64,000 nucleotides of DNA from Parcubacteria group bacterium Gr01-1014_8 (GTDB lineage Bacteria > Patescibacteriota > Minisyncoccia > Phycocordibacterales > UBA2100), in assembly GCA_007376385.1 (NCBI GenBank), contig VMGC01000002.1:32001-96000 (forward strand), read 5' to 3'. Below are positions 41,524 to 62,499 of this stretch, piece after piece (the first letter of the stretch is position 1; every line of letters starts with the position of its first letter). The notes under the pieces were generated by a model that saw only the letters and a program-made list of their open reading frames with translations, was not told the origin of the DNA and did no database searches. The position numbers and the translations under genes are program-made.

Positions 41524-42141
41524 ATGGATCTCTTGCTGCAGGGATTTGTTCTTGGGGCCGTAGGGGGCATTGTTCCTGGCGCCGTTCTGACTATCTTGCT
41601 GGTGAGCGCTTTGCAGGGCGGTTTGTACTTGGGGCTTCGAACCTTTTTCTGGGCAATGCTTTCAGAGATCGCGGTCGCTGGCGCGCTGCTTCTTCTCGCT
41701 ACTCAAATACCTCTCAATGAACGTCTGTTTATGGGCATGGGTCTCGTCGGGGGTTTTGTTCTCGTATATTTTGCCTTTAAGGTTTTCACATTGAAGTCGG
41801 TCGGTATACCCGAGCATGAACGAACAGTATTTACTCCCCTCAGAATTCTTATTTTATCTGCGACAAATGCTCCGCTCTACATCTTTTGGATATCAATATG
41901 TTTTCCGCTCATATGGCAGCTGGCTGCAAGCTGGGGTCTTTCTGCAGCAGCAGTGTCGTATTTTGTTGCATTTGAACTTGGGTGGGGAATCAGCACATTC
42001 ATGATGCTTATGCTCTTTATCTTTTCACGCTCCGTGCTGATGGATGAACGGATAATGCGCAAGGTATTTGTCGCACTCTCGATAATTCTTGCGGGGTTCG
42101 GTATCAAGATGTTCATAACGTCAGTTCAGTTATTTCAGTGA
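41524..42141 (+). CDS. LysE/RhtB-type translocator family membrane protein
   Basis: Six TM helices, N-terminal GAVGGIVPGAV motif. Confidence 0.55.
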   Translation: MDLLLQGFVLGAVGGIVPGAVLTILLVSALQGGLYLGLRTFFWAMLSEIAVAGALLLLATQIPLNERLFMGMGLVGGFVLVYFAFKVFTLKSVGIPEHERTVFTPLRILILSATNAPLYIFWISICFPLIWQLAASWGLSAAAVSYFVAFELGWGISTFMMLMLFIFSRSVLMDERIMRKVFVALSIILAGFGIKMFITSVQLFQ

Positions 42142-42743: not shown

Positions 42744-44042
42744 ATGACCAAACTTTCATTTTTTCAGATAGTCGTACTCTCATCCTTCGGTGCTCTCGCG
42801 ATCGCGGGCGTAATGATATTTGCGTTCGTGGTCGGCGGCTCCGGAGGCGAGGGCATAGGAGAAGTGAAAATTTGGGGCACGCTGGACGCTGGCGCATTTG
42901 CAACGATACTCCGTCAGCTTGCGGAAGAGGACACTCGCATGAAAGCTGTAACGTATACCCAGAAAGATCAATCAACCTTCGATCGGGATGTGACCAATGC
43001 GCTCGCGTCCGGTGCGGGGCCTGACCTGTTCGTTCTCCGCAGTGATTTCGCAGAAAAGGAGGCAGCGAAGGTGTCGGCAATACCGTATGCGCTATTTTCG
43101 GAAGAACAATTTCAAAATACGTTCATCGAAGCGGCGAACGTATACATGGGTCCGGAAGGAGTGCGCGCCGTTCCGCTTGTTGTGGACCCGCTCGTACTCT
43201 ACTGGAATCGCGACATGCTGGCCTCATCGGGCTTTGCGAAACCGCCCGTGTTTTGGGACGAGTTGTTCGACATGGCGACAAAAATGACCAAAAAAGACGA
43301 TACGAATTCCATCATAAAGAGTACCATCGCGCTCGGTGAACATCAGAACGTGGATCATGCGAAAGAGATACTCTCGCTTCTCATCATGCAAGCTCAAGGC
43401 CGCATCACGCAAAGAGATGGTACGGGGAAATTGCAGACGGCGCTTGTGGCGCGCGCAGGAGATGTACAGCAGCCGACAGAATCGGCGCTCCGGTACTACA
43501 CTGAATTTGCGAACCCTATCAAAGCGCACTACACATGGAATCGCGCACTTCGAGAGAGCCGTTCAGCGTTCGCATCGGGAGATCTCGCACTTTATATAGG
43601 CCTCGCAAGCGAGGAGCCGTTGGTACGCCGCATCAATCCGAATTTGAACTTCGCTATTGCGCCAGTGCCGCAGATACGGGGCGGTGCTCGGAGCTTGAAT
43701 GTGGGACACGTATACGCATTTGCCGTACCAAAAGCGGCCAAGAATCTGCAAGGCGCTCTCACGGTTGCCTATACTCTTGCATCAATGGATACGTCAAAAC
43801 TATTCTCTAAGGCTCTTGGCATGCCTTCTGCAAGGAGAGATGTTCTTGCGGAGCCTGCGACGGGCAATGATGATCTTTTCAACAAGCAAGCCATCCTTGC
43901 GAGAGCGTGGGTAGACCCGGACCCGGAAAAAACTGATGTTATATTTAGAGACATGATACAGAGTGTCACCAGCGGCTCTGCGCGTCTCGGCGAAGCGATA
44001 CAGAGGGCGGATAAGACGATGAGCGACCTTCTCAGCATATGA
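42744..44042 (+). CDS. Membrane-anchored extracellular solute-binding protein (ABC substrate-binding, family 1-like)
   Basis: N-terminal TM helix then a periplasmic binding fold of about 400 aa. Confidence 0.55.
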   Translation: MTKLSFFQIVVLSSFGALAIAGVMIFAFVVGGSGGEGIGEVKIWGTLDAGAFATILRQLAEEDTRMKAVTYTQKDQSTFDRDVTNALASGAGPDLFVLRSDFAEKEAAKVSAIPYALFSEEQFQNTFIEAANVYMGPEGVRAVPLVVDPLVLYWNRDMLASSGFAKPPVFWDELFDMATKMTKKDDTNSIIKSTIALGEHQNVDHAKEILSLLIMQAQGRITQRDGTGKLQTALVARAGDVQQPTESALRYYTEFANPIKAHYTWNRALRESRSAFASGDLALYIGLASEEPLVRRINPNLNFAIAPVPQIRGGARSLNVGHVYAFAVPKAAKNLQGALTVAYTLASMDTSKLFSKALGMPSARRDVLAEPATGNDDLFNKQAILARAWVDPDPEKTDVIFRDMIQSVTSGSARLGEAIQRADKTMSDLLSI

Positions 44043-44144
44043 CCCCATGAGAGAAATACTTTCGATATACCTATGAACATGATTGAACAGATCTACATGT
44101 GGGAGACAACAAAACATTCAAGCAGTCTCTCTCACGGGGTATGA
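44043..44144 (+). promoter_or_regulatory. Variant box pair TATGACCCCATGAGAGAAAT ... TCTCTCACGGGGTATG. The 5-prime box overlaps the TGA stop of 42744..44042 and the 3-prime box abuts the ATG of 44141..44488
   Basis: Same arrangement as between infB and rbfA (50709-50814). Confidence 0.55.
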
Positions 44145-44488
44145 CGAACATCAGACGAGTACTGAGGATCGCACACTGGACATTTTTCTTCGTGCTGCTG
44201 CCGTCCTTGGTTATGGCGCAAACGCTGCAAAATCCGACGCAGTTTCCGACCATTCAGCGTTTTATTGAAGGCGTACTGAAGGCGGTCGTATACATTGCGA
44301 TGCCTATCATTGCGCTTTTTATGGTGTATGCCGGGTTCCTTTTTGTTAAGGCGCGCGGAAATTCTGGAGAACTCGAGAATGCCAAGAAAAATTTTGTGTA
44401 CGTCATTATTGGCGCAATTCTCATCCTCGGCGCATGGGTATTTGCAACGCTTATCGGCGGAACCGTCAGTCAGCTCGTCGGCTCATAG
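44141..44488 (+). CDS. Small secreted two-helix membrane protein, pilin-like paralog 1
   Basis: Signal peptide ...LPSLVMA|QT, then two hydrophobic helices (YAGFLFV; ILILGAWVFATLIGG). Confidence 0.55.
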   Translation: MTNIRRVLRIAHWTFFFVLLPSLVMAQTLQNPTQFPTIQRFIEGVLKAVVYIAMPIIALFMVYAGFLFVKARGNSGELENAKKNFVYVIIGAILILGAWVFATLIGGTVSQLVGS

Positions 44489-44489
44489 C

Positions 44490-44795
44490 ATGACTACATT
44501 TAGACGCATTGGATATCTGATTCTCATCCTCGGCGCGCCGCTCGTCGTCGCGGCAGCGCCTCGCACCTATAGGGAACTTGTCGAATACCTCATTAAAATA
44601 ATGAATTACACGATAGGTACGTTGATAGTTCTTGGGCTGGTGACGTATTTTTACGGCGTTGCGCACAATATAATAAGATCTAAAGAAGGCGATTCAGGCC
44701 AGCAGAGGAGTTTTATTTTGATGGGTGTCGTCGTGATATTCGTCATGGTGTCGGTGTGGGGAATACTTCGTCTCCTTAGAACGACGTTCTTCTAG
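44490..44795 (+). CDS. Pilin-like paralog 2
   Basis: MTTFRRIGYLILILGAPLVVAAAP signal, then helices ending IFVMVSVWGILRLL; ATG 2 nt after the upstream TAG. Confidence 0.55.
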   Translation: MTTFRRIGYLILILGAPLVVAAAPRTYRELVEYLIKIMNYTIGTLIVLGLVTYFYGVAHNIIRSKEGDSGQQRSFILMGVVVIFVMVSVWGILRLLRTTFF

Positions 44796-44803
44796 TTTGA
44801 AAT

Positions 44804-45118
44804 ATGCGCGCGATCCGGGAACAGAGGAGACAATGCTTTGCCGGGGCTTCCGCCGTCATTTTCGGGATGGTCTCGCTTCCTTTTTTAGCGAACGCCCTCA
44901 CGCTCGCAGAAATGCGCGATGCGGCCGTACCCTTTCTGTATGGGATCATTGGTTTTTTCGGGGCGCTTGCATTCGGCATTTTTGGGGCAGGTCTTGTTGT
45001 TTATCTGGTTCGTATGAGTTTGGATAATCGTATGTATGGTATCGATATCATGATATGGGGGGTTACCATCCTTTTTGTCGTTGTCCTTCTCATCGGGCTT
45101 CTGGTGTGGATACAATAA
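44804..45118 (+). CDS. Pilin-like paralog 3
   Basis: Signal-like N-terminus, helices ...MIWGVTILFVVVLLIGLLVW. Confidence 0.5.
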   Translation: MRAIREQRRQCFAGASAVIFGMVSLPFLANALTLAEMRDAAVPFLYGIIGFFGALAFGIFGAGLVVYLVRMSLDNRMYGIDIMIWGVTILFVVVLLIGLLVWIQ

Positions 45119-45217
45119 GTGATTAGAAGGGGGGTTATTATGGCTGGAGGGCGAAATCGCGCGGGCCGCAGGCTTGCATGATCCACGAGCGAAGACGCAA
45201 AATCACGTATTCGTGCA

Positions 45218-45380
45218 CGCCCATGAACCAATTTTGGTTTTTGACAACCAGATCTAGCGCGTAAGAAATGTAAAGGTGTATGCCATGTCAGCGAACCCGA
45301 GGCGTATTCGAAACGATCGGCCGAACCAAAATTTGGTGCTGGGTTATCCACACAGAACCGACCTTGGCGCCTTTTTGCGC
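45218..45380 (+). repeat. Leader-type repeat, copy R1 (orphan; no gene follows)
   Basis: Shares CGCCCATGAACCAATTTTGG, TATGCCATGTCAGCG and CCAAAATTTGGTGCTGGGTTATC blocks with R2 and R3. Confidence 0.6.
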
Positions 45381-45427
45381 TATCAGGGGGATACAATAAG
45401 ACTACTTACTGGCGACGTAAGGCGAGA

Positions 45428-45470
45428 GAAACGACAGTGTAACTCACTTTCGTTTCCGAGCCGAGGAGCC
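45428..45470 (+). repeat. Hairpin/CCGAGC-box family copy E (GAAACGA-N15-TCGTTTC then CGAGCCGAGGAGCC)
   Basis: Family member between R1 and R2. Confidence 0.5.
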
Positions 45471-45524
45471 AGCAAAAATATTTTTTTACCAAGTCAACTT
45501 ATTGATATTTACTATGAGCGCACG

Positions 45525-45680
45525 ACCTGCCCATGAACCAACTTTGGCCTCCAACAACGGTCATCGTGTAGGGAAAGAAAGTTTGAAATATGCCTTGTCA
45601 GCGTACGCTGGGGTGTCGCGAAATTTCTTGGCTAGGCCAAAGTTTGGTGCGGGGTTATCGACTATGTGGGTGCTGATAGC
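45525..45680 (+). repeat. Leader-type repeat, copy R2, running into the start of pilin-like paralog 4
   Basis: Contains the identical 24-mer ACCTGCCCATGAACCAACTTTGGC found at 9818. Confidence 0.6.
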
Positions 45681-46011
45681 GGGCACTTTTCTTTTGCCTG
45701 CACTCGTCTCTGCCCAGACTCTCCTGAACACGCTCGCGCTCGTCAATACGTTCCTCAACGCGCTCATCGGTCTTTTCATTACCCTTGCCATCGTCGCGTT
45801 CTTCTGGGGACTCATCAAGTACTTGGTCAATATGGGTTCCGAGAATGCGAAAGAAGGCATTCAGATAATGCTCTGGGGCATCATCGCAATTTTCGTCATG
45901 GTCTCCATTTGGGGAATCATCCGGTTGCTCCAAGCTACGTTCCGTGTCACATCAACTGACCCGGTCATTCCAAAAGGTATTCAGATCAACACTGGAGGGG
46001 GAAACTTTTAA
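45664..46011 (+). CDS. Pilin-like paralog 4
   Basis: MWVLIAGTFLLPALVSA|QT signal, helices ...FFWGLIKY...IFVMVSIWGIIRLL. Confidence 0.55.
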   Translation: MWVLIAGTFLLPALVSAQTLLNTLALVNTFLNALIGLFITLAIVAFFWGLIKYLVNMGSENAKEGIQIMLWGIIAIFVMVSIWGIIRLLQATFRVTSTDPVIPKGIQINTGGGNF

Positions 46012-46074
46012 ACGTGGCCATTTTGATTCGAACCTGCGGGATTCTGGATTGGGGTTCCTAGGTCTGGGATAGCT

Positions 46075-46377
46075 ATGGAAGCTGGAATGATGGTGCTGCA
46101 GAGGTTCAAGGAATATATCCTTGACCCGACTATTTATCTTATCCTGACAGCAGGACTCCTTTTGTTTATTTACGGTCTTGTGCTCTTTATCTACAAGATG
46201 CGAGAGGGCAGCGACTATAAGGAGGGCCTGTCGCACATGCTCTGGGGCATAATCGGCATGTTTATTATGGTATCCGTGTACGGCATTATCGCGCTCATCA
46301 TAAACACGATCGGCGCTGACCCGACTCAACCTGATCTAAGCAGGATACCTGAAGCAAATCCCGGATTCTTTAAGTAA
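46075..46377 (+). CDS. Pilin-like paralog 5 (no cleavable signal; two TM helices)
   Basis: LFIYGLVLFIYKMREG...MLWGIIGMFIMVSVYGII, related to paralogs 2 and 4. Confidence 0.5.
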   Translation: MEAGMMVLQRFKEYILDPTIYLILTAGLLLFIYGLVLFIYKMREGSDYKEGLSHMLWGIIGMFIMVSVYGIIALIINTIGADPTQPDLSRIPEANPGFFK

Positions 46378-46852
46378 TTGTCGAAATGACAGTCGGCCAT
46401 CGCCGCCTGTACTCCAGATAAACGAGTACTATTATCGCGCAGTCATATGCGGAAAGTGCGATAAGCCATAGTGAATGCGTCTGTGTGTACAGATACAGCT
46501 GAAATAGTGCAAAAAGAGCGAGGAGTACTGACGCGATGGGGAACATTATTTTTTTGTGCATTAAGAGCCCCGATGCGAGAATCAGATTTATCAGTGCACT
46601 AATGAATAAATACAGAGCGGCAAATTCTTTTCCCGCTTGCGTGACATGCGACACGTTTGAAAGCAGCACGTTGGCTAATACATCATTCGGGTCCTCTACT
46701 AACTCCTTTGAGACGACGCTTATTGCGAGGGCAGAAAGGGTTGCGCCGCTTGTGAAAAAGATGATTACCGCGCCGATCAATTCGGCAATTGCGTGAAGTC
46801 CTTTGAGGATGACAGCAACCTCGAAGAAGCGATGCAGAAATGACCGTTGCAT
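46370..46852 (-). CDS. Hypothetical four-TM membrane protein
   Basis: Start at the internal MQRSFLH; the upstream ORF extension would overlap tRNA-Leu. Confidence 0.45.
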   Translation of the reverse strand: MQRSFLHRFFEVAVILKGLHAIAELIGAVIIFFTSGATLSALAISVVSKELVEDPNDVLANVLLSNVSHVTQAGKEFAALYLFISALINLILASGLLMHKKIMFPIASVLLALFALFQLYLYTQTHSLWLIALSAYDCAIIVLVYLEYRRRWPTVISTIT

Positions 46853-46854
46853 AG

Positions 46855-46936
46855 TGGGCAGGGGGAGATTCGAACTCCCATGCCTTGCGGCGCCGCGTCC
46901 TAAGCGCGGTACGTCTACCAGTTTCGCCACCTGCCC
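46855..46936 (-). tRNA. tRNA-Leu (anticodon TAG), type II
   Basis: GGGCAGG...anticodon loop CTTAGGA, long variable arm, T-loop TTCGAAT, CCTGCCCA. Confidence 0.85.
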
Positions 46937-47062
46937 GACAGGACGAATATACCATGACAAGGTACTATTTCGTGCTATATTTTTCGAACCGCCCACTCAC
47001 GAAATTCGTGTGGACGGGCAAACGGAGGCTAAGCAAATGAAAATGCCTTTCGCTCCGCATCA

Positions 47063-47135
47063 CCGCCCGTAGCTCAGTTGGTAGAGCAGCTCGCTCTTAA
47101 CGAGACGGTCGTAGGTTCGATTCCTACCGGGCGGA
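47063..47135 (+). tRNA. tRNA-Lys (anticodon CTT)
   Basis: C1:G72 acceptor CCGCCCG/CGGGCGG, D-arm GCTCAGTTGGTAGAGC, anticodon loop CTCTTAA, T-loop TTCGATT. Confidence 0.75.
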
Positions 47136-47825
47136 CTGGATCGTGTCCTCTGCAACATCGTGTTTCTTTTTGCGCACAAGAATGAGTAGAACCCAAACGG
47201 CAATGAACGCCAGTACGAATTTCGGACCTATCGCCGCTATCGCTTTATCACCAAGAAAATATGCGAGCGTGGTCCACATCGTATTCCAAAGCAAGGTGGC
47301 AGCGATCGAATAGAGTGCGACCGTGCGAAATGGCATTGAAAGAATTCCTGCTGCGGTGGATGTGAGTGCGCCGAGGTTCGGGTGCCAATAGGTGAGGAAG
47401 ATGGCACGCGGACCGTATCGTATTAGTTGTGACTTTGCTTTTTCGAGGGCTTCTCGAAATCCCAGTGCAACAAGGAGCCGATACCAACCGTATTTGCCGA
47501 TGTAAAAATTAAACGTGTGAGCGACCAAAAAACCGAGAGATGTGATAAATAAGACCTCACCCAATTGTACGAGGTCGGAGCCCGCGAATATTGCACCGAG
47601 TACGATCACAAGACTGCCCGGATAATACCAGCCAACCATCAGCGCGGCTTCTAAAATTGCGCTCACAAATACCGTAAGCAGTCCGTAGTTGTCAAAATAC
47701 TCTCGTGCGAGCGAAATGATTTCCTCTTGCGGTGGCAGGTCGAGCAAAGTCCATACAAGATAGAACGAGACGAACGCCGCGAGCGAAAACAAAGGCAACC
47801 AAATGGCAGCTAAAATATCCTTCAT
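47124..47825 (-). CDS. DedA/VTT-domain family membrane protein
   Basis: Characteristic DedA core (GWYYPGSLVIVLGAIFAG...FREALEKAKSQLIRYGPRAIFLTYWHPNL). Confidence 0.75.
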   Translation of the reverse strand: MKDILAAIWLPLFSLAAFVSFYLVWTLLDLPPQEEIISLAREYFDNYGLLTVFVSAILEAALMVGWYYPGSLVIVLGAIFAGSDLVQLGEVLFITSLGFLVAHTFNFYIGKYGWYRLLVALGFREALEKAKSQLIRYGPRAIFLTYWHPNLGALTSTAAGILSMPFRTVALYSIAATLLWNTMWTTLAYFLGDKAIAAIGPKFVLAFIAVWVLLILVRKKKHDVAEDTIQSAR

Positions 47826-62115: not shown

Positions 62116-62499
62116 ATGAGAGCAGTGCGTTTTGCGCTCGCGTACCTAACTCCCGTTTCTTTAGCGCTTCTGCCGCTCGTTTCAAACGCTGCTTTGCCGG
62201 ATTCCATCGTTCCGTGTAAGGGGCTCGACTGCACAGTGTGCAGCTTGGCGACACTTGCTCAAAACTTGCTGAATGCGGGGATTTTCATGGCTATCTTCAT
62301 ATCCGCGCTTCTCTTTGCCTATGCAGGGTGGCTGTATCTCACCAACGAAGCTATCGGTCAGCAGCAGAAGGCAAAAGGCATGTTTCTGAATGTGGTAGTT
62401 GGACTCGTTCTCATTCTCGGCGCATGGCTCATCGTTGATACTTTGATGAAGGTTATGCTCGGAGGCAGCTACATGCCGTGGAATAGCGTTTGTTCATAG
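62116..62499 (+). CDS. Pilin-like paralog 6 (homolog of 44141..44488)
   Basis: Signal LPLVSNA|AL, helices FAYAGWLYLT and VVGLVLILGAWLIVD; parallels VYAGFLFV and ILILGAWVF in paralog 1. Confidence 0.55.
   Translation: MRAVRFALAYLTPVSLALLPLVSNAALPDSIVPCKGLDCTVCSLATLAQNLLNAGIFMAIFISALLFAYAGWLYLTNEAIGQQQKAKGMFLNVVVGLVLILGAWLIVDTLMKVMLGGSYMPWNSVCS

Follow-up and report, generated by a model that had tools for sequence, protein, structure and literature searches.

A probable VirB2/TrbC-like pilin array behind an orphan solute-binding-protein gene in Parcubacteria group bacterium Gr01-1014_8 appears to be an old chromosomal operon

What are the small two-helix membrane proteins that are encoded side by side in the genome of Parcubacteria group bacterium Gr01-1014_8, and do they represent a fixed set of parts or a store of exchangeable variants? 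The question is raised by a 64,000-nt stretch of this genome (assembly GCA_007376385.1, contig VMGC01000002.1, positions 32,001 to 96,000 of the forward strand), which is called the window here and in whose numbering all coordinates are given. A sequence-only reading of the window had pointed to five adjacent paralogous genes and a sixth one further away. It had compared their products to VirB2/TrbC-type conjugative pilins, or else to other surface filament or bacteriocin-like subunits, and had suspected a mobile or variable island. Our analysis indicates that the six genes very probably belong to the VirB2/TrbC (T4SS_pilin, PF18895) superfamily. That they encode VirB2-like pilin subunits, out of which a distantly encoded type IV secretion system (T4SS) builds a pilus or a conduit that serves contact with the host, is the explanation that we favour with moderate confidence. 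The open reading frames (ORFs) of the window were labelled P1 to P6 in order; all six are on the plus strand, P1 to P5 adjacent and P6 apart, and each was found where it had been placed before. In the following lines and in the text, a slash within a leader motif marks the predicted cleavage site.

44141..44488, plus strand: P1, VirB2/TrbC-like pilin of 115 amino acids (aa), signal peptide ...LVMA/QT and two long helices
44490..44795, plus strand: P2, pilin-like paralog of the P4 subfamily, 101 aa, signal peptide and two hydrophobic segments
44804..45118, plus strand: P3, pilin-like paralog of 104 aa, the fastest-evolving member, signal-like segment and two hydrophobic segments
45664..46011, plus strand: P4, the most conserved pilin-like paralog, 115 aa from the ATG at 45664, cleavage predicted at LVSA/QT
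45514..46011, plus strand: P4 long form, 165 aa from the ancestral MSAR start (ATG at 45514), the in-frame R1 repeat serving as an extension of the leader
46075..46377, plus strand: P5, 100-aa pilin-like paralog that has two helices and lacks a signal peptide
62116..62499, plus strand: P6, 127-aa paralog of the P1 subfamily that stands alone behind tRNA-Tyr

The paralogy of the five adjacent genes and the sixth is significant by both blastp and hhalign. Pairwise identities range from 22 to 40%, and blastp between the paralogs gave E-values of 7e-12 for P2-P4, 1.6e-12 for P4-P5, 3e-10 for P3-P4, 3e-6 for P2-P5 and 4e-7 for P1-P6. When profiles made of the orthologs of each paralog from about 80 related genomes were compared by hhalign, two subfamilies emerged, P1 and P6 at a probability of 97.4% and P2, P3, P4 and P5 at 93-99.8% (P2-P4 99.8%, P4-P5 99.5%, P3-P4 99%). 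P4-P6 bridges the two (probability 91%, E 1e-6), and weaker bridges are formed by P2-P6, P1-P2 and the profile comparison of the P1 family with the P4 family. P1 exceeds the curated Pfam cut-offs of both PF18895 (T4SS_pilin, 46.8 bits, cut-off 26.6) and PF04956 (TrbC/VirB2, 29.0 bits, cut-off 27.9) over its full length; P4, P6 and P5 reach 25.5, 22.0 and 18.4 bits with PF18895 and stay under its cut-off. Nearly all P1 orthologs in a large protein collection carry both PF18895 and PF04956, one of them being named "pilin" by NCBI, and PF18895 is carried by many of the 946 close homologs of P4. A protein recorded for Gr01-1014_8 matches P1 with 100% identity. With the NCBIfam model NF045849, which describes a pilin-like family of integrative and conjugative elements (ICEs) in Mollicutes and has a cut-off of 40, P1 scored 36 bits and P4-P6 scored 17-19 bits. 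P2 to P6 are included in the superfamily because of the sub-threshold PF18895 scores of P4, P5 and P6 and of the blastp and hhalign links among the six proteins. The earlier comparison to VirB2/TrbC-type pilins is thus supported for P1 by the Pfam cut-offs, and linkage makes it probable for the other proteins.

The architecture of the proteins agrees with this assignment in most respects. Hydropathy profiles show an N-terminal signal-like segment followed by two long hydrophobic segments in P1, P2, P3, P4 and P6. P5 consists of two hydrophobic segments and has no signal, so the Sec-type signal with two helices that had been ascribed to the whole family applies to five members and not to P5. 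The AxA/Q site of the leaders is kept in orthologs. The conserved motifs reported before are present and sort by subfamily: YAGFLF or YAGWLY (pattern YAG[FW]L[FY]) and ILILGAW or LILGAW belong to P1 and P6, MVSVWGILRLL or MVSIWGIIRLL (pattern MVS[VI]WGI[IL]RLL) to P2 and P4. AlphaFold2 models based on ortholog alignments present P1 as a leader helix (residues 2-27) and a helical hairpin (38-70 and 75-113) with a pLDDT of 87.6, and P4 as a helical hairpin with a disordered tail (pLDDT 71). This P4 tail, the 20 C-terminal residues VTSTDPVIPKGIQINTG after the second helix (45949-46008), is nearly invariant in orthologs although it is predicted to be disordered, and it may be a processing or interaction site. 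The publicly annotated form of P1 (P0121, 91 aa) begins only at Met25, an internal methionine, and lacks the signal peptide. The start of the 115-aa form is orthologous to a start in relatives that lies in an ATGA overlap with the upstream gene, and the longer form is supported by this overlap and by the orthologs. The spacers P1-P2, P2-P3, P3-P4 and P4-P5 measure 1, 8, 545 and 63 nt, P1 and P2 being the two genes that had been described as separated by 1 nt.

Small size and two transmembrane helices are also features of holins, of bacteriocin- or immunity-type membrane proteins and of type IV or Flp-type pilins, and there are weak sub-threshold matches to a Pfam holin family (E 0.29) and to ComGF (E 0.14, the only match of the type IV pilin kind). 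We nevertheless regard an identity of this sort as very improbable, since the matches that pass a threshold are to T4SS pilins. A type IV or Flp/Tad pilin is disfavoured on the grounds that the leaders end in AxA instead of a class III G/F...E signal and that there is no prepilin-peptidase neighbour. The reading as phage holin or other phage protein was dropped because PHROGs gave no match for any of the six proteins; their neighbours are housekeeping genes. The bacteriocin-like alternative of the sequence-only reading, like the Flp/Tad one, found no support in searches of Pfam, NCBIfam and PHROGs, and neither bacteriocin-processing nor lysin genes form part of the context.

Whether the paralogs are a fixed or a changing set can be judged from the relatives, for which one genome per species was scanned (80 loci, gene order by tblastn). 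The nearest relatives of the locus bear the name Candidatus Kaiserbacteria. The order GyrA-methyltransferase-SBP-P1-P2-(P3)-P4-P5, in which SBP stands for a solute-binding-protein homolog, is kept in about 80 species wherever the contig reaches. Several of the loci that extend far enough contain a P6 match about 9-10 kb downstream of P4, and in one of them (L001) tRNA-Tyr sits ahead of the P6 position. The median identity to the window protein is 82% for GyrA, 71% for P4, 60% for the methyltransferase, 59% for P1, 54% for SBP, 46% for P5, 41% for P2 and 39% for P3, with P4 being conserved above its housekeeping neighbours except GyrA. An ortholog of P5 follows P4 in 80 loci and one of P3 is detectable in only 43. 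To judge from these comparisons, each paralog is an old ortholog under purifying selection, and the one-to-one syntenic correspondence argues against recent amplification or antigenic variation.

The suspected mobile or hypervariable island would hold tandem pilin variants for antigenic or host-range variation between borders of tRNA genes and repeats. Such elements are indeed nearby, P2 and P3 evolve fast (39-41% median identity), and it has been proposed that variation among array pilins could aid host adaptation (PMC12102498). The relatives speak so clearly for a different history that we consider an island highly implausible: P1, P2, P4 and P5 have one-to-one orthologs in the same order in about 80 species, and the tRNA genes on either side of the gap between P5 and P6, a tRNA-Leu/Lys/Leu/Cys cluster following P5 and a tRNA-Tyr preceding P6, are kept as neighbours too. 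The base composition of the locus is flat and unremarkable, and when the larger ORFs of the window were scanned with Pfam, neither an integrase nor a transposase gene appeared next to the array. The repeats are small genome-wide elements which are absent from the relatives and do not constitute island borders. As far as gene order and conservation can tell, the array is an old conserved chromosomal operon and not a mobile island.

Another hint at the way in which the paralogs are used comes from more distant homologs. With a profile of P4 orthologs, 7,790 of 1.84 billion cluster representatives were retrieved at E<=1e-3. Roughly one in three of the 150 best P4-family representatives is a chain of 200-370 aa in which a single signal peptide is followed by two or three hairpin modules. 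Within these multi-module chains (P0245-P0262 and others, outside the window) the modules are joined by linkers of 30-40 residues. The fusions are topologically consistent, and the cited literature on these pilins does not mention fused multi-module chains. Since two or three modules in one chain would come to lie side by side in one assembly, the fusions argue for co-assembly of the paralogs.

The array is preceded by the following gene:

42744..44042, plus strand: membrane-anchored orphan solute-binding-protein homolog (SBP), 432 aa, the conserved gene that opens the SBP-pilin unit

As described in the sequence-only reading, SBP is a membrane-anchored solute-binding-protein homolog, with Pfam matches at E ~1e-15 (SBP_bac_8 1.4e-15, SBP_bac_1 5.5e-15) and an N-terminal hydrophobic anchor. 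Its nearest solved relatives are sugar-binding proteins, MBP1 (4r9f, 6.5e-10) and a trehalose/maltose-binding protein (1eu8), and SBP can be classified on this basis as an apparent distant family-1 (sugar-type) substrate-binding protein. Genes for an ABC permease or ATPase are present next to SBP neither in the window nor in relatives, and the sole ABC gene of the window encodes a fused exporter (10095-11876). SBP is found directly upstream of P1 in 77 related loci. In 56 of 79 relatives the stop of SBP and the start of P1 share an ATGA, and a further 18 have a gap of 0-30 nt; no relative shows the two genes apart, despite insertions elsewhere in the array. In the window itself the two genes do not overlap, and their gap of 98 nt is filled by an inverted-repeat element of about 100 nt. 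The stop/start box pair that had been said to couple SBP to the array is this inserted element, and the tight coupling itself is evident in the relatives. The coupling is suggestive of a functional link.

VirB2-like pilin arrays in Patescibacteria are already described, and the locus adds one more of these and not a new kind of system. In a 2025 survey (Quinonero-Coronel et al., PMC12102498) 3,035 Patescibacteria genomes were searched with PF18895 and PF04956. VirB2-like pilins were found in 1,948 VirB4-containing assemblies, in 813 of them far from virB4, and 441 arrays of 2-11 genes were counted in 383 assemblies, with a mean identity within arrays of 25% and a maximum of 54%. In view of these numbers, an array of six paralogs is not as notable as had been thought. 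The survey defined an array as at least two pilin genes, in tandem or one gene apart, with low mutual identity (PMC12102498); P1-P5, five adjacent genes with 22-40% identity in a Paceibacteria genome, correspond to this definition. Only P1, P4 and P6 would pass the profile (HMM, hidden Markov model) criteria of the survey, so that the array was probably under-counted there. Table S1 of the survey lists Gr01-1014_8 (GCA_007376385.1, Paceibacteria, 1.06 Mb) as VirB4-positive, as well as six of the nine array-bearing relatives found in it (PMC12102498).

Several observations weigh against an assembly of P1-P6 by a T4SS. Genes for VirB4, VirB6, VirB3 and VirD4 were detected neither in the 64-kb window (Pfam, larger ORFs), where these scans revealed housekeeping genes only, nor within 10 kb past either window edge (~84 kb in total), nor in a relative over the 10 kb around its array. 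The VirB4- or VirB6-like genes that the sequence-only reading had proposed to look for are thus not nearby, VirB4 being elsewhere in the genome (PMC12102498). The remaining three of the nine array-bearing relatives, which are incomplete draft metagenome-assembled genomes, are VirB4-negative in Table S1 (PMC12102498). In Saccharibacteria, unlike here, the pilins sit within the T4SS cluster; the pilin series of Southlakia epibionticum ML1 is essential and lies inside such a cluster (Wang et al. 2023, PMC10633639). The cited literature reports no pilus in any Patescibacterium, and a search for further T4SS_pilin reports found nothing relevant beyond these two papers (PMC12102498, PMC10633639) and the other cited work. 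On the level of the proteins, P2 and P3 have no Pfam match of their own, and a profile of P1 orthologs found no solved pilin among the PDB sequences.

Alternatively, the hairpins could have no T4SS role and form a separate membrane or surface complex with SBP. Such a complex might, for instance, anchor a sugar-binding receptor or transduce its signals, the receptor being used to capture nutrients or to adhere to a host. The overlapping and never separated SBP/P1 pair, the missing permease and ATPase neighbours and the ~84 kb free of T4SS genes are all in line with this, and the fused homologs with two or three modules would fit a membrane complex of fixed stoichiometry. Adjacency is weak as evidence, however, because the whole region, including the unrelated GyrA and methyltransferase genes, is equally syntenic and packed. 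The homology to VirB2/TrbC and to ICE pilin-like proteins, the VirB4 of the source genome and the large number of assemblies with pilins distant from virB4 (PMC12102498) also stand against a T4SS-independent complex, which we judge to be rather unlikely. It is more doubtful still that SBP and co-assembling VirB2-like hairpins constitute one apparatus, in which a heteromeric filament or platform would present or dock SBP at the host interface. If this were true, a secretion pilin would have been given a second use, in capturing nutrients or recognising the host, and perhaps one that needs no T4SS.

For the favoured explanation, pilin subunits used by a distant T4SS, we propose the following course of events. 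The operon would comprise methyltransferase-SBP-P1-P2-P3, followed by P4-P5 apparently with a promoter of their own, and P6 would be an outlying copy. Pre-proteins would be inserted through Sec/YidC, and five of the six would lose their N-terminal leader to signal peptidase at the AxA site. The mature hairpins of 75-90 residues would be stored in the membrane, their short polar loop on the inner side and both termini on the outer side, from where a T4SS encoded elsewhere (the VirB4 ATPase and its partners) would extract and polymerise them. The product could be a short pilus or a cell-wall-spanning conduit that serves contact with a host cell, or exchange with one. Each paralog would be a specialised subunit of a joint assembly rather than an interchangeable variant, with P4 and P1 as the most constrained and P2 and P3 as the fastest-evolving ones.

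Two families of small repeats have altered the operon in this genome. The first one, a pair of inverted boxes, occupies the junction of SBP and P1 and recurs in the window:

44041..44142, no strand: ~100-nt box-pair inverted-repeat element in the ancestral ATGA overlap of SBP and P1, flanked by TATGA direct repeats
9985/10073, 25913/26006, 28991/29082, 44041/44130, 52352/52441, 53861/53950 and 53961/54055: box pairs
24074 and 50709: single boxes

Where relatives read AGCATATGA at the SBP-P1 junction and have no insert, the window carries an element bounded by the inverted boxes ACCCCATGAGA...TCTCACGGGGT, and a TATGA duplication regenerates the SBP stop and the P1 start. The duplication around the copy at 44041-44142 suggests that it arrived by insertion. 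The box TCTCAYGGGGTAT has 16 matches in the window compared to 1 expected. Members of the family are intergenic, about 100 nt long and consist of two inverted boxes of 13-17 nt, TATACCCCRTGAGATAA ... TTATCTCAYGGGGTATA, about 90 nt apart; a closing stem (z about -4 to -6) is formed by five of the seven pairs. The 80 related Kaiserbacteria loci contain virtually no such box. In metagenomes, however, at least 120 contigs carry the paired arrangement, with a length mode of 97-101 nt and once as three elements in tandem (L131). A miniature inverted-repeat transposable element with a conserved body was considered and rejected, since the interiors are unrelated both in the window and in 127 metagenomic copies. 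The family resembles REPIN/BIME elements, and a literature search on small repeats in Patescibacteria found nothing relevant.

The second family, R1, has copies upstream of and within the P4 gene and corresponds to the leader repeats of the sequence-only reading, which are real and exist in three copies of about 145 nt:

9815-9958: R1 copy, ~145-nt element
45212..45357, plus strand: R1 copy A, in the P3-P4 spacer (covariance model 136.5 bits)
45522..45668, plus strand: R1 copy B, in frame just after the first four P4 codons (covariance model 158.4 bits)
45390..45402, plus strand: promoter-like block GGGGGATACAAT upstream of P4, aligning to GGGGATAGAAT of the closest relative

A long-range stem of R1 is maintained by compensatory changes between the copies. 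Alignment to a relative (L003) shows copy B as an in-frame insertion; its frame is open for 49 codons and the second ATG (45664) is located at its end. Either P4 start (45514 or 45664) would lead to the same mature protein after the predicted cleavage at LVSA/QT. One reading frame runs open through two of the three R1 copies, and the peptides encoded there are similar (PAHEPTLA...FGAG..M). Copy B recalls the palindromic elements of Rickettsia, which insert in frame into genes. A conserved leader RNA was rejected for R1, as the covariance model found no copy in 1.15 Mb of related loci (80 loci), and R1 is therefore a genome-specific repeat. An Rfam scan of 41000-64000 yielded only tRNAs, so neither the box pair nor R1 is a described RNA. 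Both are genome-specific repeats which invaded the operon and broke no gene. The P3-P4 spacer has a length of 545 nt here versus about 150 nt in the closest relative. The block GGGGGATACAAT in this spacer is a candidate P4 promoter, and many relatives have a TAnAAT-like hexamer 35-40 nt ahead of the P4 start; a consensus-based search of the surroundings of the array for promoters and terminators stayed at background level.

Some further features of the region vary between species. At 41524-42141, a gene for a multi-pass membrane protein of 205 aa without a Pfam match separates gyrA from the methyltransferase gene; it has no counterpart at this place in the 80 related loci and is thus a lineage-specific insertion. 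The variable part of the region is 46370-47825, after P5, where DUF2127 and VTT/DedA-like genes are shared with few relatives only. The mechanically called DUF2127 ORF overruns tRNA-Leu, and its true start must therefore be further in. The genes of the tRNA-Leu/Lys/Leu/Cys cluster differ in orientation between species. With respect to the tRNA-Tyr T-arm-like fragment that had been reported at 46025-46040, there is in the P4-P5 spacer a single exact match of 14 nt (GATTCGAACCTGCG, 46024-46037) to the opposite strand of the T arm (p ~0.007 against random windows). This match stands alone, is missing from the relatives, and probably represents chance or a relic.

Patescibacteria make up a large and mostly uncultured share of bacterial diversity. 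The T4SS that they equip with VirB2-like pilins is indispensable in the single species in which this has been tested, and its role has been termed completely unknown in the literature. To this picture the locus adds a set of pilin paralogs that appears to be an ancient and fixed group of orthologs in Paceibacteria/Kaiserbacteria. The set is encoded away from secretion genes and tied to an orphan binding-protein gene, and related organisms fuse two or three of the modules in one chain. Taken together, the fixed orthologs, the location with its tie to SBP and the fusions favour a heteromeric structure over antigenic variation. P4, P1 and SBP are concrete targets for structural and proteomic work.

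Among known systems, the Patescibacteria VirB2-like arrays (PMC12102498) are the closest: they share the superfamily, the phylum, tandem divergent paralogs and a VirB4-positive host with our locus, which like them has no relaxase context. Those arrays are most abundant in Microgenomatia and Saccharimonadia (PMC12102498), whereas the present one belongs to Paceibacteria/Kaiserbacteria, stands behind an orphan SBP gene whose stop overlaps the P1 start in most relatives, and has members that are individually conserved orthologs across about 80 species. It also differs from the S. epibionticum series by its position far from T4SS genes in a housekeeping region. VirB2 of the Agrobacterium T-pilin, TrbC of RP4 and TraA of the F-pilin consist, as here, of a leader, two hydrophobic helices and a short polar loop, and P1 matches Pfam TrbC over its full length. 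These pilins come from diderm bacteria, are encoded next to virB3/virB4 and are known for cyclisation or acetylation and for solved pili; a fold search against the solved conjugative pilins was non-discriminating for the window proteins. The Mbov_0395-family ICE proteins (NF045849) resemble our proteins in their monoderm hosts and two-helix module, but they are encoded in mobile ICEs, while the window genes are part of a stable chromosomal operon and all score below the cut-off of that family. Finally, the T4SS of Bartonella and Anaplasma also have several tandem virB2 copies per genome. Those copies are read as antigenic variants, whereas in the array described here the orthology of each paralog and the fusions point to co-assembly.

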